From the IMG/VR virus record IMGVR_UViG_2909246061_000003, positions 1-8,684 of that record: a stretch of 8,684 nt of DNA. One strand, 5' to 3'. A program made the position numbers and the translations under genes. The notes beneath the pieces were generated by a model that was given only the letters and a program-made list of their open reading frames with translations, was not told the origin of the DNA and did not search any database. The stretch comes from a virus (Duplodnaviria; Heunggongvirae; Uroviricota; Caudoviricetes). Below, piece by piece: positions 1 through 8,684 of this stretch. Numbering within the stretch: the stretch's first letter is position 1; every line of letters starts with the position of its first letter.

Positions 1-192
1 TCAGGAGCATTTCTGATTAACACCACCGTTAAGAATCCACCCCTCAACAGCTTCACGAAGGTATGATTTGGGGTGGGTTCTGACTGGCTTCGGAAATCCG
101 TGCCGTTTGGTATAGTTCCAGATTGTCTGACGTGATGAAACACCGAGCTTGTTCATCACTTCTTTCTCAGGAATCAGGCTGGTATCGGTCAT
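1..192 (-). CDS. Excisionase-like small DNA-binding protein (lambda Xis / AlpA-like), 63 aa
   Basis: Complete ORF on the minus strand: ATG at 192-190, TGA at 3-1. GGAG lies about 7 nt upstream of the ATG (revcomp of 201-204). The motif W-x-Y-x3-G-FPKPV-x-Y-x3-V-x-W resembles the winged-helix core of lambda Xis and AlpA-type regulators, from memory. Position at the prophage edge fits int lying further left, off-window. Confidence 0.55.
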   Translation of the reverse strand: MTDTSLIPEKEVMNKLGVSSRQTIWNYTKRHGFPKPVRTHPKSYLREAVEGWILNGGVNQKCS

Positions 193-204
193 CTTAATTC
201 TCCA

Positions 205-231
205 GGCAAAAAGAAACCGCCATCAGGCGGC
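205..231 (-). terminator. Intrinsic terminator-like hairpin between the 55-aa ORF and the excisionase-like gene
   Basis: Minus-strand reading: stem CCGCC, loop TGAT, stem GGCGG, then TTTCTTTTT (plus 217-221 pairs with 226-230; A-run at plus 208-216). The stop codon of the upstream 55-aa ORF sits in the loop. Confidence 0.45.
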
Positions 232-390
232 TTGGTGTTCTTTCAGTTCTTCAATTCGAATATTGGTTACGTCTGCATGCGCTATCTGCGCCCATATCAT
301 CCAGTGGTTATAGCAGTCGTTGATGCCCTCTGCTTCGATAACTCTGTTGAATGGTTCTCCATTCCATTCACCTGTGACTCGGAAGTGCAT
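223..390 (-). CDS. Hypothetical small protein, 55 aa (below the ORF-track length cutoff)
   Basis: Hand translation of the minus strand: ATG at 390-388, TGA at 225-223, GGAG about 7 nt upstream. Product MHFRVTGEWNGEPFNRVIEAEGINDCYNHWMIWAQIAHADVTNIRIEELKEHQAA. No family recognised. Confidence 0.3.
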   Translation of the reverse strand: MHFRVTGEWNGEPFNRVIEAEGINDCYNHWMIWAQIAHADVTNIRIEELKEHQAA

Positions 391-403
391 TTATCATCTC
401 CAT

Positions 404-427
404 AAAACAAAACTCGCCGTAGCGAGT
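404..427 (-). terminator. Intrinsic terminator-like hairpin (proximal of a tandem pair)
   Basis: Plus 412-417 ACTCGC pairs with 422-427 GCGAGT, loop CGTA. On the minus strand the hairpin is followed by TTTTGTTTT. Confidence 0.45.
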
Positions 428-440
428 TCAGATAAAAGAA

Positions 441-459
441 AACCCGCACTCGGCGGGTT
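441..459 (-). terminator. Intrinsic terminator-like hairpin (distal of a tandem pair)
   Basis: Plus 441-447 AACCCGC pairs with 453-459 GCGGGTT, loop ACTCG. On the minus strand the 7-bp GC-rich stem is followed by TTTTCTTTTAT. Confidence 0.5.
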
Positions 460-479
460 CGCATTCGTTCAAATTGCGT

Positions 480-578
480 TTACTTCTTGGCGTTCTGTTC
501 ATCCATATCGATATACCATGGGTTGCTTCCCTTGGGCATGTTTAACGACTGCTCGCGATAGTATCTGATGCGCTCCAT
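480..578 (-). CDS. Possible cIII-like micro-ORF, 32 aa (very tentative)
   Basis: Hand translation: ATG 578-576, TAA 482-480. Product MERIRYYREQSLNMPKGSNPWYIDMDEQNAKK. Loose resemblance to the ERI...LN.PG.PKNGSN stretch of lambda/P22 cIII from memory. No convincing SD. Lies in the leftward operon where cIII would be expected. Confidence 0.2.
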   Translation of the reverse strand: MERIRYYREQSLNMPKGSNPWYIDMDEQNAKK

Positions 579-738
579 GAAATACTCGCGTGAGTGCTCA
601 GGTTGCTCTCATGATACCTGCTCAGTGATAACAGGTATGTTAAGGCGCTCTCTGTACTCCATGCCTGATGCTGCAAGGTCAACGTTTACCTTGTTCTGTT
701 TTTCTTTCGATTTCTCGGCGATGTTATGCCTGACATTG

Positions 739-981
739 TCAACCCGCCTCCTTCTGAACATAACGGTTATAAATCAGTCCCTGAGGGCCATAAGGAAGCG
801 GGATGTGCAACTCCTCTGGTTCAGAAACTATCCATTCTCCGGCCATCTCCGCTGGAGAGGTAATGATAAGTTGTTTGCTAATAAAAGGACCACTCCTCTC
901 AACAACAAGCTTACCATCTTCATTAATAAAAGCTTGGATGTCAGGTGTGCTTCCACACTTGGTGATGCAGCGTTTGAACAT
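739..981 (-). CDS. Hypothetical protein, 80 aa (ORF-track frame 739..1023; internal ATG with SD preferred)
   Basis: Minus-strand ORF. The ATG at 981-979 is preceded by GGGGGA at about 6 nt; the upstream ATG at 1023 has no SD. Product begins MFKRCITKCGSTPDIQAFINEDGKLVVERSG. No family recognised. Confidence 0.4.
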   Translation of the reverse strand: MFKRCITKCGSTPDIQAFINEDGKLVVERSGPFISKQLIITSPAEMAGEWIVSEPEELHIPLPYGPQGLIYNRYVQKEAG

Positions 982-1107
982 TTTGTGTCCCCCCATTTTA
1001 TGTACGGGGTAATTATAACACATTGAAATATAGTAATATTTGACGTAGATTTCTTTTGATCTATAAGCGATTTTTTAATGCTTTTAAGTTATAAATACTT
1101 GTTTTCA

Positions 1108-1524
1108 TCACCCATCTTGCTGCGGTGCTACTATTGAAAAGTGCTCACACCCTTTAGCCCAAATAGTTTTGATAGTTGTCCAACTGACTGGAACCTTGAT
1201 TTCGATTCTCCCGCTACAGTCACAAGTTTCGCAATCATCATCACCAAAGCATTCCGGGCAGCTTATAAACGTAGTTTCTGAAAATTCACCGGATAGCACA
1301 CCCTTAGCGCCGTTCTCGGCTGTTAGTCTCTTCGGCACCATGACCCAACCATCCGGAATTACCGGAGAGTTGCCGGGTTCTTTAATGTGCAAGCGAGGCT
1401 CACCATCTTTTGGCTCAGGCCACTGGCGCTCCATGTTGATCTTCAATTTATCTTCCATAGCAGCGGTAATTTCAGCATCGCTGATGCCAGCACGGCGCTG
1501 TGCATCCCACAACAGGAAATGCAT
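1108..1524 (-). CDS. Hypothetical Cys-rich protein, 138 aa, possibly the 3' remnant of a longer gene
   Basis: Minus-strand ORF with protein-like composition, whereas the overlapping plus ORF 1169..1558 is Ser/Leu-rich and starts on TTG. C-terminal CPEC-x6-CETCDC cluster suggests metal binding. No SD before the ATG at 1524. The frame is open upstream only to a stop at 1557-1555, right at the junction where lambda-like sequence begins. Confidence 0.4.
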   Translation of the reverse strand: MHFLLWDAQRRAGISDAEITAAMEDKLKINMERQWPEPKDGEPRLHIKEPGNSPVIPDGWVMVPKRLTAENGAKGVLSGEFSETTFISCPECFGDDDCETCDCSGRIEIKVPVSWTTIKTIWAKGCEHFSIVAPQQDG

Positions 1525-1566
1525 ACAGTACGGAACTAAACGCGGAAAAGCCGCTTAAGACATTCC

Positions 1567-1598
1567 CGCTCTTACACATCCCAGCCCTGAAAAAGGGC
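1567..1598 (+). promoter_or_regulatory. nutR-like N-utilisation site: boxA CGCTCTTAC (1567-1575) and boxB GCCCTGAAAAAGGGC (1584-1598)
   Basis: Seen directly. Matches lambda nutR boxA/boxB as I recall them, with about one mismatch in the spacer. The following leader down to the cII ATG also looks lambda-like. Confidence 0.8.
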
Positions 1599-1677
1599 AT
1601 CAAATTAAACCACACCTATGGTGTATGCATTTATTTGCATACATTCAATCAATTGTTATCTAAGGAAATACTTACAT

Positions 1678-1956
1678 ATGCAACTTACAAGTACTCGCAA
1701 GAAAGCGAATGCAATTACAAGCAACATCCTGAATCGAATTGCTGTACGTGGTCAGCGAAAGGTTGCCGACGCGTTAGGGGTTAATGAATCGCAAATTTCG
1801 CGATGGAAAGACAGCTTCATCCCCAAAATGGGAATGCTTCTGGCTGTTCTTGAATGGGGTGTTGAAGACGAGGAGTTGGCGGAACTGGCTAAGCAAGTAG
1901 CCAGAATGCTGACAAAAGAAAAAGCCCCGAAGAACGGCGAATTCTTCGAGGCCTGA
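1678..1956 (+). CDS. cII: Transcriptional activator CII homologue, 92 aa
   Basis: The stretch SQISRWK...IPK..MLLAVLEWGV.D...A.LA.QVA..LT..K.P is collinear with lambda CII. ATG at 1678 is preceded by AAGGAAA. The ORF-track start at 1618 is an upstream non-ATG extension and is not used. The N-terminal 25 residues differ from lambda while the leader matches, indicating a mosaic. Confidence 0.85.
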   Translation: MQLTSTRKKANAITSNILNRIAVRGQRKVADALGVNESQISRWKDSFIPKMGMLLAVLEWGVEDEELAELAKQVARMLTKEKAPKNGEFFEA

Positions 1957-1990
1957 TGTAGAAAGACTGGATCAATCCACAGGAGTAATT

Positions 1991-2152
1991 ATGACAAAAC
2001 GTCGTAAGAAATACCAGGAAAAAGAAGAGATTCGACACCCTGATTCACCTGAGGGATTAGTGGTAGCCGCAGCAAATAACAGGGCGTTCGCAGAACGCCT
2101 TGTTGGTGTTTACAGACTAGCCAAAGCAGGAGTGAAACATGGGCGTCGTTAA
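1991..2152 (+). CDS. Small basic ORF, 53 aa, using a lambda-O-like RBS and start context
   Basis: AGGAG at 1981-1985, then ATG at 1991. Product MTKRRKKYQEKEEIRHPDSPEGLVVAAANNRAFAERLVGVYRLAKAGVKHGRR. Overlaps the O-like start by 14 nt. Could be a real small gene or a by-product of a recombination junction. Confidence 0.3.
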   Translation: MTKRRKKYQEKEEIRHPDSPEGLVVAAANNRAFAERLVGVYRLAKAGVKHGRR

Positions 2153-2936
2153 GTTAGCTGATTACAGGCCTCAACTGGAGGTCGTGGAGCATCGCGTGGC
2201 AGATACCGAAGATGGTTTCATGCGCATTGCTAACGAGATTACCGACAGTCTGCTGATGGCTGATTTAACCGTCCGGCAGTTGAAGGTGATGCTCGCTATC
2301 ATGCGCAAGACATACGGATTCAATAAGCCGATGGATCGACTCACAAACACGCAGATAGCAGCCATGACAGGTATTCATCACACTCATGTTTGCGCTGCCA
2401 AGCGCCAGCTTATCGAGCGTAAATTCCTCATTGCTGATGGCGTGAAAATCGGAGTGAACAAGGTGGTTTCTCAGTGGATTAGCCAGGACAGCTTAACATT
2501 AGCTAAAACAGCTAATAAAACATTAGCCAAGTCGGCTAATGGGTATAAGCCAAGTCAGCTAAACACAAAAGACAATATACAAAAGACAATAAATACAAAT
2601 ACCCCCTTACCCCCTAACGGGGGCGGCGATGGGCAGGTTAAACCTGAACGTCGCAAGGCAGAACGAATCGACTACGAATCCTTCCTGAACGCCTACAACA
2701 CCGAAGTCGGTGACAGACTGCCACACGCTGTTGCGGTCAACGAGAAACGCAAACGCCGCCTGAAGAAAATCATCCCGCAACTGAAAACGCCAAACGTGGA
2801 CGGTTTCAGAGCGTATGTCAGGGCGTTTGTGCATCAGGCCAAGCCGTTTTACTTCGGAGACAACGACACGGGCTGGACGGCCGATTTTGATTACCTGCTG
2901 AGGGAAGACTCGTTAACGGGAGTTCGGGAAGCGTAG
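2139..2936 (+). CDS. Replication initiator, lambda O-like N-terminal domain, 265 aa
   Basis: AGGAG at 2128-2132, ATG at 2139, in-frame stop immediately upstream. N-terminal half is collinear with lambda O (RVAD.EDG...L...L..ADLT.RQ.KV.LAI.RKTYG.NKPMDR.T..Q). C-terminal half is not recognisably lambda O. Internal iteron-like repeats are listed separately. Confidence 0.8.
   Translation: MGVVKLADYRPQLEVVEHRVADTEDGFMRIANEITDSLLMADLTVRQLKVMLAIMRKTYGFNKPMDRLTNTQIAAMTGIHHTHVCAAKRQLIERKFLIADGVKIGVNKVVSQWISQDSLTLAKTANKTLAKSANGYKPSQLNTKDNIQKTINTNTPLPPNGGGDGQVKPERRKAERIDYESFLNAYNTEVGDRLPHAVAVNEKRKRRLKKIIPQLKTPNVDGFRAYVRAFVHQAKPFYFGDNDTGWTADFDYLLREDSLTGVREA
2477..2603 (+). repeat. Origin-like array inside the O-like gene: four iteron-like repeats followed by an AT-rich tract
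   Basis: Repeats of about 21-24 bp, each with internal dyad ATTAGC...GCTAAT: 2477-2497, 2497-2520, 2521-2544, 2545-2568. Then an A/T-rich tract to about 2603 (AAAAGACAATATACAAAAGACAATAAATACAAATAC). Same architecture as ori-lambda inside O. Confidence 0.5.
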
Positions 2937-2962
2937 CTAAATTTCATTCGCCAAAAAGCCCG

Positions 2963-3541
2963 ATGATGAGCGACTCACCACGGGCTACGGCTTCTGACTC
3001 TCTTTCCGGTACTGATGTGATGGCTGCTATGGGGATGGCGCAATCACAAGCCGGATTCGGTATGGCTGCATTCTGTGGTAAGCACGAACTCAGCCAGAAC
3101 GACAAACAAAAGGCTATCAACTATCTGATGCAATTTGCACACAAGGTATCGGGGAAATACCGTGGTGTGGCAAAGATCGAAGGAAATACTAAGGCAAAGG
3201 TACTGCAAGTGCTCGCAACATTCGCTTATGCGGATTATTGCCGTAGTGCCGCGACGCCGGGGGCAAGATGCAGAGATTGCCACGGTACAGGCCGTGTGGT
3301 TGATATAGCAAAAACAGAGCAGTGGGGGAGAGTTGTTGAGAAAGAGTGCGGAAGATGCAAAGGTGTCGGCTATTCAAGGATGCCAGCAAGCGCCGCATAT
3401 CGCGCTGTAACGATGCTAATTCCAAACCTCACCCAACCCACCTGGTCACGCACTGTTAAGCCGCTGTATGACGCTCTGGTGGTGCAATGCCACAAAGAAG
3501 AGTCAATCGCAGACAACATTTTGAACGCGGTCACACGTTAG
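2963..3541 (+). CDS. Q: Late antiterminator Q, lambda-type, read from the first in-frame ATG (192 aa); native start codon apparently lost
   Basis: Product has the Zn-binding CRDCHGTG...CGRCKGVG module and is collinear with lambda Q as I recall it. The frame is open upstream to 2891 and encodes ...VAKFHSPKSP before the Met-Met at 2963, matching lambda Q residues about 6-15, but no ATG/GTG/TTG or SD is present there. Only 26 bp separate it from the O-like stop. Confidence 0.75.
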   Translation: MMSDSPRATASDSLSGTDVMAAMGMAQSQAGFGMAAFCGKHELSQNDKQKAINYLMQFAHKVSGKYRGVAKIEGNTKAKVLQVLATFAYADYCRSAATPGARCRDCHGTGRVVDIAKTEQWGRVVEKECGRCKGVGYSRMPASAAYRAVTMLIPNLTQPTWSRTVKPLYDALVVQCHKEESIADNILNAVTR

Positions 3542-3583
3542 CAGCATGATTGCCACGGATGGCAACATATTAACGGCATAATA

Positions 3584-3612
3584 TTGACTTTTTGAATAAA
3601 GTTGGGTAAATT
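3584..3612 (+). promoter_or_regulatory. pR'-like late promoter (-35 TTGACT 3584-3589, 17-bp spacer, -10 TAAATT 3607-3612) with adjacent qut-like region
   Basis: Hexamers and spacing seen directly. The surrounding sequence closely resembles the lambda pR' region from memory, up to about 3640, where similarity ends. Confidence 0.6.
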
Positions 3613-3646
3613 TGACATCAACGATGGATAAATGCACTCGTTAAAT

Positions 3647-3685
3647 AAAGCCCTGAGTTAATAGCTCTGGGCTTTTTGCGTTTTA
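3647..3685 (+). terminator. Intrinsic terminator closing a short leader transcript from the pR'-like promoter
   Basis: Stem 3650-3657 GCCCTGAG pairs with 3665-3672 CTCTGGGC (one T-T mismatch), loop TTAATA, then TTTTTGCGTTTT. Confidence 0.5.
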
Positions 3686-3958
3686 AGCACGGCCTTTCTG
3701 AAAGCACATCAAACCAAATACCAGACAGACAATACCCTCACCTTATAGGGACACTTGCTTCAACAGGAGGGACGGTTAGGACCGCCATCCTATATGGGAC
3801 GACCGCCAATAGAACCACGGCCACGGTAATAGAACTCTTCAGAGATGGCACAGTCGCTGCCGGGCATACTTTTACGCTGAGAGATATTTCTTTTGGAGAC
3901 AGCAGGGCTCTAGGGGCTGATTTTGGAGGCTCCTTCGGGAATCTGTATAAGTTCTAAT

Positions 3959-3976
3959 CGGCCGCATCAGCGGCCG
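3959..3976. terminator. All-GC hairpin just past the gtrC stop, a possible operon-end or bidirectional terminator
   Basis: CGGCCGC (3959-3965), loop ATCA, GCGGCCG (3970-3976). A U-rich tract follows on the plus side only (TATCTCTTT). On the minus strand it lies 8 nt after the gtrC stop without a clean T-run. Confidence 0.35.
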
Positions 3977-3983
3977 TATCTCT

Positions 3984-5585
3984 TTACAGATAAGCGACGA
4001 AATAGCCGTCAATTTTCTTTATTTTAAGTTTGTCGCCATAGATGGATAGGGGCTTCTTGAGCCATGTATCGTCTGTGGCGACATATATCTCATTATTCCT
4101 TAGCGTACCCTTAGCCTTAATTTCGGCTATATATCTTTTGTTATTATCTATCGCTGCTTTGTCTGCTCTAGCAAAATACCCAAAATTAAGTTTCATTTTT
4201 TCTGAAGAAGCAAATTCAGCAAATGGGAGCCAATGTCTTAAGCTGAACTCATCGTAATCAGTGGTTATGATAGTGTCCTTCCCTTTGGAGATGACTTCCC
4301 ACTCTTTACTCAACATTTGAGAGCTGTATGGCTTACCAGTATATATCTCTCGAACGGCTTTGAAAAAGTTGCTTTCATCCGCCACTGATATTAATAGAAT
4401 AGGGAGCAAGACATAAGCAGAACTTTTCGAGGTTTTTGCTAAGTATGCCAAAACAATCAACATCAAGATCATCGTCACCGGCCAGAAGAACCGACCAGAA
4501 GAGCGAAAAACGCCACCAACCTTCATGAGAAAGTCATTCATTGGAATTTCAATGAGATTAAATCCATAAAAGTTAATTCGATAAGTTATAGAAACGGCAG
4601 CCAGAACTAAACAGAAGTACAATACAGGAGATTTTATAATTCTCCTGAAATCTATGGACTTTCTTAAAGAGGAGTCTATCAGCATAAACAAAAATAGCGT
4701 GATGATGCCTAATCCTAGATAATTTATACCCTCAAAGTTAGCCTGTTGACTCCCATGACTCAAGATAAGATGTGAGTATCTCTGGTCTCCTGGGTTGAAC
4801 CAGCCGGCAAGATCCATGTTAAGGAATCCGAATCCAGGGTATGGGTCAGAGCCTTTAATAACAAAGTATCCGGTAGCATACATTGCGAGAAATATTAACA
4901 CAGAGTAACACGCGAAAAAGAATGCCGATCTTTTTAAAGATAAACGGTTTGTGTTCAGTTTGTTTAAAATGTCAAATGCAAAAATTAAATACACCATTAT
5001 CAGCAAATATGCATGAATGGTGACTGAGAGAACTAAAATAGCAGCCCATCTTTTAAAGCAAAAAGACCTATTGATATAAAGGTAAAATCCAAAAAGAATT
5101 AGCCACTGAGCGCCTAATGCAAAGTGACCACCGGCACGATTTAAGAATATTGGTGCAATGCAGAAGAAGCATGAACCTATTGCAGAGAATATCTCATCCT
5201 TTGTTAACTTACGAAGAACCAAATACGCAGAAAACGTCATAAGCACAAAGCAAAGATACATCCAAAGCCCGTGATATTGAAATCTGGCGGGGAGAAAGTC
5301 GCTAAAAGGCTTGAATATGAAGGCCATAATTGGGATTGAGTCGGTGTAAACGATAGACCCACCTACACCCATCCCATAGTTATAATTTAGGCCAAGGGGC
5401 CACTGCAACAACGGAGTATTTCGGAAGAAATTCCATCCTGACCAGCTTTGACCAGGATCACCTATCATAAGCCATCCAACTCTTTTGAAGTCCAGCACAT
5501 TCACACCAACATACATAGCAAACATTGATGTCGTGAATATAAACATAAATAAGGACGCTAAAATCCTTTTTTGTGCCTTAGTCAT
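3984..5585 (-). CDS. Serotype-specific O-antigen glucosyltransferase, GtrC-type polytopic membrane protein, 533 aa
   Basis: Third gene of a gtrA-gtrB-gtr(type) operon. The ATG at 5585 overlaps the gtrB stop by 8 nt (ATGACTAA). N-terminal two-thirds has many hydrophobic segments; C-terminal hydrophilic domain of about 130 aa. Markedly AT-rich codon usage compared with neighbours. No close relative recognised from memory. Confidence 0.7.
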
Positions 5586-6501
5586 TGTGTTTATTCCTTA
5601 AGATGTAACGAGGCCTAGCCTTGACTTCAATATATATTCTTCCGATATATTCACCAAGAACGCCAATGCCGATAAGTTGAATCCCGCCCAAGAACAGGAT
5701 TGAAACAAGGAGTGAAGGATATCCTCTCACGGCATTTCCAAATGCAATAGTATCGATGATCATCCAGGCTCCGTAGATAAATGCAAGCCCAGCGACTAGT
5801 AATCCAATATAAGTCCACATACGTAGAGGGAATGTAGAAAAGCTAGTAATCCCTTCTAGAGCTAAATTCCAAAGCTTCCAGCCATTAAACTTTGTGCAAC
5901 CAGCGACTCGCTCAGCTCTGGCGTATTCTACTACATCTGTTTTCCCGCCAACCCAAGACAAAACGCCCTTCATGAACAAGTTTCTTTCTGGCATTAGTTT
6001 GATATTTTCTACCACTTCTCGTGACATTAAACGGAAGTCACCGACGTTCTCTTCAATTTTGGGATTGCTGATTTTATTGTGTAGCTTATAGAACCACTCA
6101 GCTGATTTTCGCTTTAAACGACCGTCAGTAGACCTGTCTGTACGTTTGGCCAGAACCATATCCGCCCCAGCCTGCCACTTCTCAATTAGGTGGGGGATTA
6201 CTTCAATTGGGTCCTGCAGATCTACATCAATCGGAATGACCGCGTCGCCTGTAGCTTGGTCAAGGCCAGCAAACAAAGCCGGTTCCTTTCCGAAGTTACG
6301 CGTGAAGGAGAGAGGAACTACGAGTGGGTCAGCAATGGCAAGCGCGTTAATAATTGATTCTGTAGCGTCTTTGCTACCGTCGTTAATGAAGACTATTTCG
6401 ACTTCATGCTGCTGAAGCCCTTCAAATTCCCGCACGGTTTTATAGAAGATTGGAATTGCTTCCTCTTCATTAAACACAGGAACGACCAGAGAAATTTTCA
6501 T
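5578..6501 (-). CDS. gtrB: Bactoprenol glucosyltransferase GtrB (GT2 family), 307 aa
   Basis: Near-collinear with Shigella/Salmonella phage GtrB from memory ([23 protein letters not shown]...FINDGSKD...DVDLQDP...). ATG at 6501 overlaps the gtrA stop (ATGA). Confidence 0.9.
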
Positions 6502-6860
6502 TTCACATCCCTAAAGACAATGAACTTTGAATAAATAAACCCGCACACCAGACTGATGGCGGAGAACAGAATTAAGGTGATGATTGGTGCCAGACCAGAT
6601 TTATCCGCCGCCCAACCCACAGCTGCGCTAAGCGTCCCCATAAAGCCGACGTAAAGCATGTATCGCATGGTTGTTGTGGATGACTTAAACGTGAATCTGG
6701 CATTTGCGAAGAAGCTAAATGACACAGCCACAACGAACCCGGCAAAGTTGCCAAGGGCCTGTCCTGTATGGAATGCATAGATGCAAATTGCGAACACTAC
6801 CCAGTGAATGAGCGTGTTAATGACACCTATCGATGTGTACTTGGCGAATAACTTTAACAT
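6498..6860 (-). CDS. gtrA: Bactoprenol-linked glucose translocase (flippase) GtrA, 120 aa
   Basis: From the internal ATG at 6860 the product [23 protein letters not shown]... matches GtrA at its usual 120-aa length. The ORF-track start at 6923 is a GTG extension and is not used. Confidence 0.85.
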
Positions 6861-6936
6861 TATAGAAATCAGTGAATTCGGAAAGGTCTGAAGTGTAGCA
6901 CCACAAACGCTATTGATCGACACCGCCGATCAGTAC

Positions 6937-6950
6937 TACTGTATTAATAT
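6937..6950. promoter_or_regulatory. Left half of an interrupted LexA (SOS) box: TACTGT plus the ATTAATAT centre
   Basis: Joining 6937-6950 to 8275-8280 (removing the IS and one copy of the duplication) gives TACTGTATTAATATACAGTA, i.e. CTGT-N8-ACAG with an AT-rich centre, close to the TACTG(TA)5CAGTA consensus. Confidence 0.6.
6943..6950. repeat. Target-site duplication ATTAATAT, left copy
   Basis: Identical 8-mer directly abuts both IS termini (6943-6950 and 8267-8274). Confidence 0.75.
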
Positions 6951-8266
6951 GGGTCTTCCCTTGTTGTGGTGGCTGAAGGCATGATAATGGTGTATTTAAT
7001 CGCCAGAGGTCACCGCCATGGACGAAAAGTCCCTCTACGCTCATATTCTCAACCTGTCCGATCCGTGGCAGGTAAAGTCCCTTTCTCTCGATGAAAATGC
7101 CGGTTCTGTTACTGTCACTATTGAGATCGCTGAAAACACCCGGCTAGCCTGTCCGGCCTGCGGTAAATCCTGTTCTGTTCACGATCACCGTCATCGTAAA
7201 TGGCGCCATCTTGATACCTGCCAGTTCACCACTATTGTTGAAGCCGATGTTCCACGAATTATGTGTCCGGAGCATGGCTGTCAGACGTTGCCTGTTCCGT
7301 GGGCTGGCCCCGGAAGCCGGTATACGTTGCTGTTCGAATTGTTCGTTCTCTCATGGCTGAAAATCAGCACCGTTGATGCTGTCAGGAAGCAACTTAAGCT
7401 CAGCTGGAATGCGGTTGACGGCATTATGACCCGGGCAGTTAAGCGAGGTCTTGCCCGGATAAAAAAGCCATTATCCGCCCGTCATATGAATGTGGATGAG
7501 GTCGCCTTTAAAAAAGGACATCGTTACATAACGGTGATCTCCGATCGCGATGGTCGGGCGCTGGCCTTAACGGATGATCGCGGCACAGAGAGTCTTGCCG
7601 GCTATCTTCGCACACTCACTGATGGGCAGTTGCTGGCTATCAAAACGCTCTCAATGGACATGAACGCGGGCTATATAAGAGCAGCGCGCATCCACTTACC
7701 CAGCGCGGTTGAGAAAATCGCCTTTGACCGCTTCCATGTGGCGAAGCAACTGGGCGAGGTAGTTGATAAAACCCGTCAGAATGAACATCCGCACCTCCCT
7801 GTTGAAAGCCGACGCCAGGCAAAAGGAACCCGCTTCCTGTGGCAGTACAGTGATAAGTGGATGACTGAATCCCGGCAGGAAAAGCTGATGTGGCTGCGTG
7901 CACAGATGAAGCTGACGAGCCAGTGCTGGGCGCTGAAAGAGCTGGCAAAGGATATCTGGAACAGGCCATGGAGCGAGGAAAGGCGGAGTGACTGGCAGAG
8001 ATGGCTGGCGCTGGCGGCTAACAGTGACGTTCCCATGATGAAAAATGCTGCGAAAACGATAGGAAAAAGGCTGTACGGGATCCTGAATGCGATGCGACAC
8101 AGTGTCTCAAACGGAAATGCGGAGGCACTTAACAGCAAGATAAGGTTGCTGAGAATAAAAGCCAGGGGATACCGAAACCGGGAGCGCTTTAAACTGGGAG
8201 TGATGTTCCACTACGGTAAGCTGAATATGGAGTTCTGAGCCTTCCCACCATGATCGGGGAAGACCC
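6951..8266 (+). mobile_element. ISL3-family insertion sequence, about 1.3 kb, with imperfect terminal inverted repeats
   Basis: Left end GGGTCTTCCC...GGTGG..GAAGGC (from 6951) mirrors the reverse complement of the right end (...GCCTTCCCACC...GGGGAAGACCC ending at 8266). Contains a single transposase ORF and is flanked by an 8-bp direct repeat. Confidence 0.75.
7018..8238 (+). CDS. ISL3-family transposase, 406 aa
   Basis: ATG at 7018. N-terminal Cys/His zinc-ribbon (CPACG...C..H.H) followed by a long catalytic region, typical of ISL3-type transposases from memory. The three antisense ORFs within it are taken as artefacts. Confidence 0.85.
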   Translation: MDEKSLYAHILNLSDPWQVKSLSLDENAGSVTVTIEIAENTRLACPACGKSCSVHDHRHRKWRHLDTCQFTTIVEADVPRIMCPEHGCQTLPVPWAGPGSRYTLLFELFVLSWLKISTVDAVRKQLKLSWNAVDGIMTRAVKRGLARIKKPLSARHMNVDEVAFKKGHRYITVISDRDGRALALTDDRGTESLAGYLRTLTDGQLLAIKTLSMDMNAGYIRAARIHLPSAVEKIAFDRFHVAKQLGEVVDKTRQNEHPHLPVESRRQAKGTRFLWQYSDKWMTESRQEKLMWLRAQMKLTSQCWALKELAKDIWNRPWSEERRSDWQRWLALAANSDVPMMKNAAKTIGKRLYGILNAMRHSVSNGNAEALNSKIRLLRIKARGYRNRERFKLGVMFHYGKLNMEF

Positions 8267-8274
8267 ATTAATAT
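8267..8274. repeat. Target-site duplication ATTAATAT, right copy
   Basis: See left copy. Confidence 0.75.
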
Positions 8275-8297: not shown

Positions 8298-8684
8298 ATG
8301 GGATTCCCGAGTCCGGCTCAAGACTATGTTGAAGAGCGCGTATTGCTCGACAAGCGCATCATAAGCAGACCAGCGGCCACGTATTTCATGAGAGCGGGTG
8401 CAACGCATCACCGCGAAGGCATCCTGAATGGTGCTCTTCTGGTAGTGGATGCATCGCTATCACCATGTGACGGCTCGTTGCTGGTTTGCAGAATGGAAGG
8501 TGAGCTGAGGATTAAGCGATATCGCAAATCACCAAAGCCTCACCTGGAGGATTTGCAGACGGGAAGGCGTGAGGAGATACCGGCACACGATGACGGCACG
8601 AGTCCGGATGCGATATTTGGTGTGATCACCTACATCATAAACGATGCACGCTCTGGCGAGTTTGATGATTGTCTGATTATGTGA
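8298..8684 (+). CDS. UmuD'-like protein (peptidase S24 fold, natively lacking the N-terminal arm; phage P1 HumD-like), 128 aa
   Basis: GGAGGTGA RBS, ATG at 8298, in-frame stop at 8292-8294. Product begins MGFPSPAQDY, which corresponds to the GFPSPA segment immediately after the RecA-mediated cleavage site of UmuD/MucA. The rest is collinear with UmuD/MucA from memory, including the conserved Lys (RIKRY), but the GDSM Ser motif is replaced by GATHH. TGA ends exactly at the window edge. Confidence 0.75.
   Translation: MGFPSPAQDYVEERVLLDKRIISRPAATYFMRAGATHHREGILNGALLVVDASLSPCDGSLLVCRMEGELRIKRYRKSPKPHLEDLQTGRREEIPAHDDGTSPDAIFGVITYIINDARSGEFDDCLIM

Follow-up and report, generated by a model that had tools for sequence, protein, structure and literature searches.

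An orphan lambda-type nutR beside a very probable deletion scar in the remnant of an O-antigen-converting lambdoid prophage

How does a lambda-like nutR come to stand without the immunity region that normally precedes it? The question is raised by the window, the whole 8,684-nt stretch of viral DNA analyzed here (IMG/VR record IMGVR_UViG_2909246061_000003). The initial annotation described the sequence from about position 1566 as lambda-like (boxA, boxB, tR1, cII leader). Immediately upstream it found the 5' end of a minus-strand, Cys-rich ORF in place of cro and the operators, and it proposed a deletion junction. Our comparisons make it very probable that the window belongs to an 8.8-kb remnant of a decaying Sf6/Sf101-like, O-antigen-converting lambdoid prophage at the Escherichia coli sbcB att site.

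The same element is located between sbcB and dacD in E. coli PSS-10 (NZ_AP027685; record L002). A 13-bp att core, CGTAATCGTGAAA, has been published for phages 2851 and Sf101 at sbcB (PMC4159516). This core is found at both ends of the remnant, in PSS-10 (L002 2496 and 14924) and in record L005, and both cores are outside the window. The att-to-att span between the cores in these records sets the size of the remnant, 8.8 kb. The remnant contains int, xis, small ea genes, a truncated eaA (eaA'), a cro fragment (cro'), cII, orf53, a 3'-truncated O (O'), a 5'-truncated Q ('Q), gtrCBA and humD. Genes for morphogenesis, lysis, the replication helicase, N and the repressor are missing from the whole 8.8 kb. 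The att repeats, the loss of essential lytic genes, the truncated genes at the junctions and the presence of the missing DNA in relatives are the features of a defective prophage. The following features were assigned in the window.

1-20, plus strand: 3' end of int, its last 20 nt (annotation of PSS-10 and SFAD3)
1-192, minus strand: xis/AlpA-like gene (PHROG 66 excisionase), its 3' end overlapping int by 20 nt
460-440, 429-410 and 233-214, minus strand: three leftward intrinsic-terminator-like hairpins between the ea genes and xis (terminator scan)
223-390, minus strand: 55-aa gene (ORF list)
about 480-761, minus strand: DNA polymerase III theta-like pseudogene (ORF list and domain scans)
739-1023, minus strand: 80/94-aa gene (ORF list)
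1108-1524, minus strand: 5'-truncated eaA-like gene, 138 aa, with a Cys-rich C-terminus (Pfam PF04447)
1524-1525, no strand: very probable deletion junction at TA (three-way alignment A2)
1526-1558, plus strand: cro remnant, last 10 codons and TAA (match to Sf6 gene 40)
1567-1598, plus strand: orphan nutR (lambda alignment A1; transfer of the Sf6 annotation)
1620-1648, plus strand: tR1-equivalent region (Sf6 coordinate transfer; identical to lambda in A1)
1668-1696, minus strand: predicted pRE-equivalent promoter (Sf6 coordinate transfer)
1687-1700, minus strand: predicted CII-binding site, TTGC-N6-TTGT on the minus strand (Sf6 transfer; sequence read directly)
1678-1956, plus strand: intact cII of the P22 c1/Sf6 gp41 type (Pfam Phage_CII)
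between cII and O, plus strand: 53-aa gene, orf53 (ORF list)
2139-2936, plus strand: 3'-truncated replication protein O (Pfam Phage_rep_O; alignment A3)
2929-2931, no strand: second deletion junction, AAG microhomology (alignment A3)
2963-3541, plus strand: Q antiterminator of the lambda/HK97 type, native start lost (Pfam Antiterm, 1.1e-57)
3984-5585, minus strand: gtrC of the DUF6311 type, followed by gtrB and gtrA, also on the minus strand
6951-8266: ISL3-family insertion sequence (domain scans)
8298-8684: humD, umuD'-like (HumD equivalog)

The int/xis end matches Sf101, 2851 and HK140 at 97-99%. Sf6, Sf101 and 2851 are inducible phages with complete genomes of 38-62 kb, in which N, cI, pL/pR and morphogenesis genes are present; all of these are deleted here. 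The N homologue of Sf6 (gene 37) is located to the left of nutL, in the segment that is deleted in the remnant. Sf6 and Sf101 carry oac/oacB, whereas the remnant carries a gtrA-gtrB cluster with a DUF6311-type gtrC. In the literature searched we found reports on the sbcB att site of Sf101 and 2851 and no description of the present remnant. A scan of the whole window at Rfam gathering thresholds, the junction and nutR included, returned no families.

The breakpoint was defined by three-way alignment (A2). It is a TA at 1524-1525, a 2-bp microhomology common to both parental sequences. The left parent (PSS-10, L002 5406) ends in GGAAATGCATA at the breakpoint and continues with TCAGCC. The right parent (L002 9002) has GGTTTGGTTA up to the breakpoint and CAGTACGG after it, and the window reads GGAAATGCATACAGTACGG across the junction. 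In phage and E. coli sequences alike, matches to the left flank stop at 1525-1528 and those to the right flank start at 1524, which is also where the match to Sf6 gene 40 (cro; L001 2320-2535) begins. The surviving part of cro is a 33-nt stub of the 434/Sf6 type at 1526-1558, encoding QYGTKRGKAA*. The right breakpoint is thus inside cro, at nucleotide ~182 of the 216-nt gene, and the first ~182 nt are deleted. The proposed junction next to nutR is confirmed by this alignment and by sister copies that hold the missing DNA, with the correction that its right end is within cro and not directly upstream of nutR.

Neither cI, N, pR, pL nor an intact cro was found in the window or in the att-to-att remnants of records L004-L006 and L009, which are 100% identical. 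The initial annotation was therefore right that cI, N and pR are absent, and went too far only for cro, since its 3' stub survives. An immunity region displaced to another position in the prophage had been considered as well, and none is present in the remnant. The S24-peptidase gene at 8298-8684, the only one of its kind in the element, was considered as a displaced repressor. It scores 207 bits as a HumD/UmuD' equivalog (cut-off 120) and has no HTH domain, so we rejected this reading.

The missing DNA is found in PSS-10. Window positions 1-1528 and 1524-6950 match PSS-10 at 99.9-100%, but the two matches are 3,596 bp apart there. The additional 3,596 bp contain a full-length eaA, an ea22-like gene, gp157 and a truncated recT fused to a cro remnant. 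A 41-mer across the window junction occurs in L004-L006, L009, L011, L013 and L014 but in none of L001-L003, and the strains that carry the junction include GCA_014942485.1. Except for the IS, which they lack, L004-L006 match the window at 100%. In 5,426 complete E. coli genomes, neither the window-type junction nor the junction of another sister copy, L010, was found, and PSS-10 is the only one with the same remnant. In the assembly collection, 83 blocks index the 138-aa protein, and 23 contigs were read.

Lambdoid phages are highly mosaic, and natural homology boundaries are located nearby, at about window positions 445, 1547, 1565 and 1661. The junction could on these grounds be a natural module boundary of a functional phage whose immunity region lies elsewhere. 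Such a boundary should have intact genes on both sides and belong to a complete phage. Instead, both genes at the junction are truncated, the 8.8-kb att-to-att element has no structural, lysis, repressor or N genes, and near-identical sister copies hold the missing DNA in canonical order. The mosaic explanation is effectively refuted, and we give it a negligible probability. In all likelihood, positions 1524-1525 are the scar of a deletion in a decaying prophage.

IS-mediated deletion is common in the decay of Shigella and E. coli prophages. An IS could have made the present deletion, either adjacent to itself or by recombination between two IS copies. Its candidates are the ISL3-family IS in the window (6951-8266) and an IS21-family element in the theta pseudogene of sister copy L012. 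The sbcB locus itself adds to the case, as the Sf101 paper (PMC4159516) reports IS elements upstream of sbcB in each of the ten sequenced Shigella flexneri genomes that it examined. At and near 1524, however, there is no IS sequence or IS end, only a clean phage-phage join at TA. The ISL3 element is 5.4 kb away, is flanked by its own intact 8-bp target duplication, ATTAATAT, and is missing from 100% identical copies that already carry the junction. Because it is absent from every sister copy, its insertion is a later, unrelated event. We rejected IS-mediated deletion, which we regard as very improbable.

The junctions of the remnant family all have microhomologies of 2-5 bp (TA, TA/ATA, AAG, TCTTC, TA and CA), and an IS is found at none of them. 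Short microhomology without IS is typical of illegitimate recombination that does not depend on RecA, for example by replication slippage or microhomology-mediated end joining. A mechanism of this type probably produced the junctions. At the window junction, a RecA-independent deletion at the TA microhomology would have fused the leftward eaA-like gene, at codon 55, with the rightward 434-type cro, at nucleotide ~182. This deletion and an earlier or overlapping loss would between them account for the absence of the recombination genes, N, nutL, pL, cI, pRM/OR/pR and most of cro.

The ORF to the left of the junction also carries the mark of the deletion. The initial annotation described it as a Cys-rich minus-strand ORF without a Shine-Dalgarno sequence, open only to a stop at the junction and cut by the same event. 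Each of these points was borne out. Reading by eye, we found no AGGAG-like sequence in the 20 nt before the ATG, and the frame is closed 11 codons upstream of the ATG by a TAA within the cro remnant. The 138-aa product is identical to residues 55-192 of the 192-aa EaA/DUF550 protein of PSS-10 and starts at a native internal Met. It scores 69.6 bits against PF04447 (cut-off 23), the dATP/dGTP pyrophosphohydrolase family. Its domain is incomplete, as residues 1-52 cover profile positions 45-96 of 97 (2.8e-19), versus 1-96 of 97 for the PSS-10 parent.

The possibility that the protein is complete and has homologues of its own size was not borne out. The full-length parent matched 457 phage records (tblastn), and among the 25 matches listed, which include P22 EaA, all align from parent residue 1-8. 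The conserved core therefore includes the 54 residues that were lost. Compared with P22 EaA and the PF04447 family, the ORF matches the C-terminal half of a longer protein, as had been suspected, and lacks 44 profile positions (54 residues), the start region and the promoter. It is a gene fragment that has lost half of its sole conserved domain, its start region and its pL-driven transcription.

To the right of the junction, the lambda-like character noted at the outset is confirmed by alignment A1 and by transfer from Sf6. Positions 1565-1680, from CCCGCTCTTACACAT to the cII ATG (1678-1680), are identical to lambda (NC_001416) except for one base, a T/C mismatch in the spacer between boxA and boxB. 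The boxA, CGCTCTTA at 1567-1574, and the boxB hairpin, GCCCTGAAAAAGGGC at 1584-1598, are both identical to lambda. Over a longer stretch, 1524-2169 is 99.2% identical to the cro-nutR-cII-orf42-O region of Sf6. The cII protein covers the complete Phage_CII profile (1-91 of 91, 1.7e-42), and cII is 99% identical to Sf6 and HK446.

The nutR sequence has a consensus boxA and a 15-nt boxB hairpin with a GAAAA-type loop, as expected for a lambda-type site. As in lambda, it is located just upstream of the tR1 region and cII. It has tR1 and cII on its 3' side and the cro stub on its 5' side, but pR and OR, which would place it on a pR transcript, are deleted. No N-like gene is present between the att sites of L005 and L009, both 100% identical copies. 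Judged by its sequence, nutR is a bona fide lambda-type nut site outside the context of a working one. Since there is no pR upstream and no N gene in the element, it cannot perform its known function in cis. The pRE-equivalent promoter formerly faced cro and cI and now faces the truncated eaA gene. This predicted promoter would require CII, which the remnant can hardly make.

A second junction is located in the same block. The AAG at 2929-2931 joins the 3' end of O to codon 5 of Q, and the helicase gene and the nin region are gone. A 41-mer, CGTTAACGGGAGTTCGGGAAGCGTAGCTAAATTTCATTCGC, defines this O'/'Q junction. Alignment A3 with the end of the SFAD3 O gene shows that the last 9 codons of O are missing. 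Q has lost 4-5 codons at its start, and its DNA is 97.6% identical to the HK97 Q gene. The HK97 protein begins with MRLESVAKFHSPKSPMMSD, and the ORF in the window begins with MMSD; this 192-aa ORF starts at Met16 of the 207-aa protein. Met16 is the only point at which translation of Q could restart. A promoter-like site and a terminator-like hairpin are found 3' of Q.

These losses suggest that the region around the junction is inert, with nutR unfed by transcription and without N, and with cII, O' and 'Q without a promoter. Transcriptional silence of the cII-O-Q block, which the initial annotation predicted, is a reasonable expectation from the layout, and beyond the loss of the promoter, O and Q are themselves truncated. 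Only one promoter-like site faces nutR, a weak one at 1023-1051 on the plus strand with 9 of 12 consensus matches, and the whole scan gave fewer promoter-like sites than shuffled sequence. Residual transcription could come from this site, from read-through of int on the plus strand, or from pRE activated in trans. Both xis and int had been placed behind three terminators. The hairpins are present and xis is behind them. In the annotation of PSS-10 and SFAD3, however, int is on the plus strand and convergent with xis, so it is not behind the terminators; int presumably has its own promoter next to attL.

Sister copies provide information about the order in which the modules were lost. These variants were found through contigs encoding the truncated O protein and the 55-aa protein, and their prophage DNA is otherwise identical. 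The arrangement of the window, or W type, is found in 21 of the 23 contigs read. In the P type (PSS-10 and L012), a 5'-truncated recT (Pfam RecT, positions 44-186 of 198) is joined to the last 98 nt of cro. L010 (ERZ28628934) joins window position 434 directly to 1526, with the junction sequence TTCAGATACAGTACGG. L018 has the W arrangement but has additionally lost window 1755-3785, at a CA microhomology. The O'/'Q junction and the junction downstream of Q are common to all variants except L018, which has no junction downstream of Q because its extra deletion removed it.

The immunity region is retained in L017, a metagenome contig (ENA ERZ27235348). Its nutL, pL, gene 38, cI, OR/pR and complete cro occupy their canonical position and are 99.7% identical to Sf6. 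At window position 1455 this block meets eaA, through a TCTTC microhomology that ends in the nutL boxB. L017 shares the O'/'Q and Q/gtrC junctions with the window. Because it has both of these junctions as well as the immunity region, the ancestor with both deletions kept an intact immunity region.

Comparison of these sequences indicates at least two deletions of the immunity region, one in the P type and one in the W type. The W type may descend from the P type, through a nested deletion of 3,596 bp, or straight from the ancestor with intact immunity, and the two histories require equal numbers of events. The junction in the window may reflect two nested deletions, of which it is the second, and not one event. 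Across the variants, the prophage DNA is invariant and has no informative SNPs; the difference is confined to a recombined chromosomal block, sbmC-yeeA.

All six variants (W, P, M, L017, L018 and the window with its IS) have int, xis, gtrABC and humD. This retained set suggests that selection maintains O-antigen modification and not phage function. The remnant follows a known pattern, ordinary prophage decay, with no departure from known biology. Loss of regulatory and lytic modules through short homologies, with retention of cargo that benefits the host (here the O-antigen glucosylation genes), is well known. The cryptic lambdoid prophages DLP12, Rac and Qin of K-12 have lost large blocks and are fixed at chromosomal att sites. 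Like the remnant, they still have int/xis, parts of the early region and a Q-type antiterminator left as an orphan. Unlike them, the present remnant is Sf6/Sf101-like (P22-like) and serotype-converting, is located at sbcB and keeps gtrABC and humD. It is also much smaller (8.8 kb), and several stages of its decay are found in near-identical sister strains. At sbcB it occurs in at least five deletion states, from one that keeps cI-pR-cro to one from which cII-O-Q is also gone. Such a natural series can be used to follow the order of deletions in prophage decay, their endpoints and their use of microhomology. It also provides a warning for annotation, as what is called cII, O, Q and 'DUF550' here consists of relics or fragments and not of a working circuit.

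One observation counts against this explanation. The W-type and L010 junctions have the same right endpoint to the nucleotide, TA followed by CAGTACGG. Under a model of random endpoints, this sharing is at about the 0.6-3% level. The 3' end of cro, TTA followed by CAGTACGG, might be a deletion hot spot, with the W type and L010 arising independently from a PSS-10-like parent. L010 joins 434 to 1526 through the same TA, chance reuse of which is about 1 in 175 TA sites, and its chromosomal SNPs in sbmC-yeeA group it with the PSS-10 type and not with the window type. This grouping mildly favors independent origins, but recombination of the flank explains the SNPs equally well. The L010 junction is known from one contig only, a metagenome scaffold. 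L010 could instead be derived from the W type through ATA at the existing junction, which needs a 1-in-29 coincidence among ATA sites plus flank recombination. Inspection of the sequence by eye showed neither a hairpin or repeat nor a known recognition site at the shared endpoint. Considering both sides, we think a hot spot unlikely, and ordinary decay remains our preferred explanation.

A pattern scan for a non-T three positions before CAGTACGG gave no hits in JGI metagenome contigs, GTDB species genomes or IMG/VR, where the lineage is absent. The recurrent, nucleotide-precise endpoint might point further, to a break or template-switch mechanism with a site preference that shapes the loss of immunity in lambdoid phages. 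We consider this improbable. Weaker still is the idea that the retained pRE-cII-nutR stub acts as a sensor of CII or N from a superinfecting Sf6/434-type phage. If it were true, transcription would be driven leftward toward xis or rightward into cII-O'-'Q.

Comparison with public assemblies revealed at least five deletion states of the same remnant, including those in the sister contigs L010, L017 and L018. Three features concern L010 and the early region of the window.

L010 9385-9387: junction in L010, window position 434 joined to 1526
1169-1558, plus strand: 129-aa open reading frame that begins with TTG and lies opposite (antisense to) the eaA remnant
1922-1954, minus strand: strong terminator-like hairpin inside the 3' end of cII

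L010 and the window type differ at the left endpoint, but the right endpoint in the cro stub, TA|CAGTACGG, is identical in both. By SNPs in the chromosomal flank, L010 groups with the type found in E. coli PSS-10, which carries a longer sister remnant. The shared right endpoint reflects a deletion hot spot or else a coincidence at the 1-3% level. The 129-aa antisense frame continues in frame through the cro stub and shares the stop codon of cro. The fusion most likely produced this open frame by chance. The hairpin in cII occupies the position of the oop RNA terminator in lambda. A putative oop-like antisense RNA may be the only early-region transcript that the remnant could still make.

Additional material has been lost on the other side of the replication gene.

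2929-2931: second deletion junction, where O' meets a Q of the lambda/HK97 type at codon 5 through an AAG microhomology

The last nine codons of O are gone at this fusion, and the helicase/P gene and the entire nin region are missing. Q could restart only at Met16, which would give a protein of 192 aa compared to 207 aa. Downstream of Q, homology to the HK97, HK022 and mEpX phages stops at window ~3746-3747, before the holin gene, and the 3' end of gtrC is reached through the following 240 bp. At this third deletion junction, the lysis, morphogenesis and tail genes were removed. It is common to PSS-10, L010, L012 (a copy of the PSS-10 type) and L017.

The HumD-family gene and gtrABC are kept in all variants.

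3984-5585, minus strand: gtrC, serotype-specific, a 533-aa DUF6311-family membrane protein (PF19830, 5.9e-64)
8298-8684, plus strand: HumD-family gene (phage P1 HumD/UmuD'-like), 128 aa
6951-8266: ISL3-family insertion sequence of 1,316 bp, with a 406-aa transposase (NCBIfam transpos_ISL3, 323 bits)

gtrC would specify the form of O-antigen modification. The HumD-family gene is located close to attR, at that end of the remnant, without a umuC partner. The ISL3-family element is inserted between gtrA and humD, whose intergenic region measures 113 bp, and lies upstream of gtrA at a distance of about 90 bp from its start. Its terminal inverted repeats begin GGGTCTTCCC, and it is bracketed by an 8-bp target duplication, ATTAATAT, at 6943-6950 and 8267-8274. 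The element was not found in any sister copy (L002, from PSS-10, and L004-L019). The promoters of gtrA and humD, which are divergent, could be influenced by its insertion.

Two further features are located at the left end of the window.

1-20, plus strand: end of the integrase gene, overlapping the 3' end of xis (1-192, minus strand) by 20 nt
480-761, minus strand: HolE homologue (theta subunit of DNA polymerase III) carried by the prophage, matching positions 2-39 of 70 in Pfam PF06440

The strand of int and its overlap with the xis 3' end indicate that the two genes are convergent. In lambda, by contrast, int and xis are co-transcribed leftward. The theta homologue is a pseudogene broken by an internal stop. 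The same pseudogene is found in PSS-10 and in the comparison sequence SFAD3, and the copy in L012 additionally carries an IS21-family insertion.
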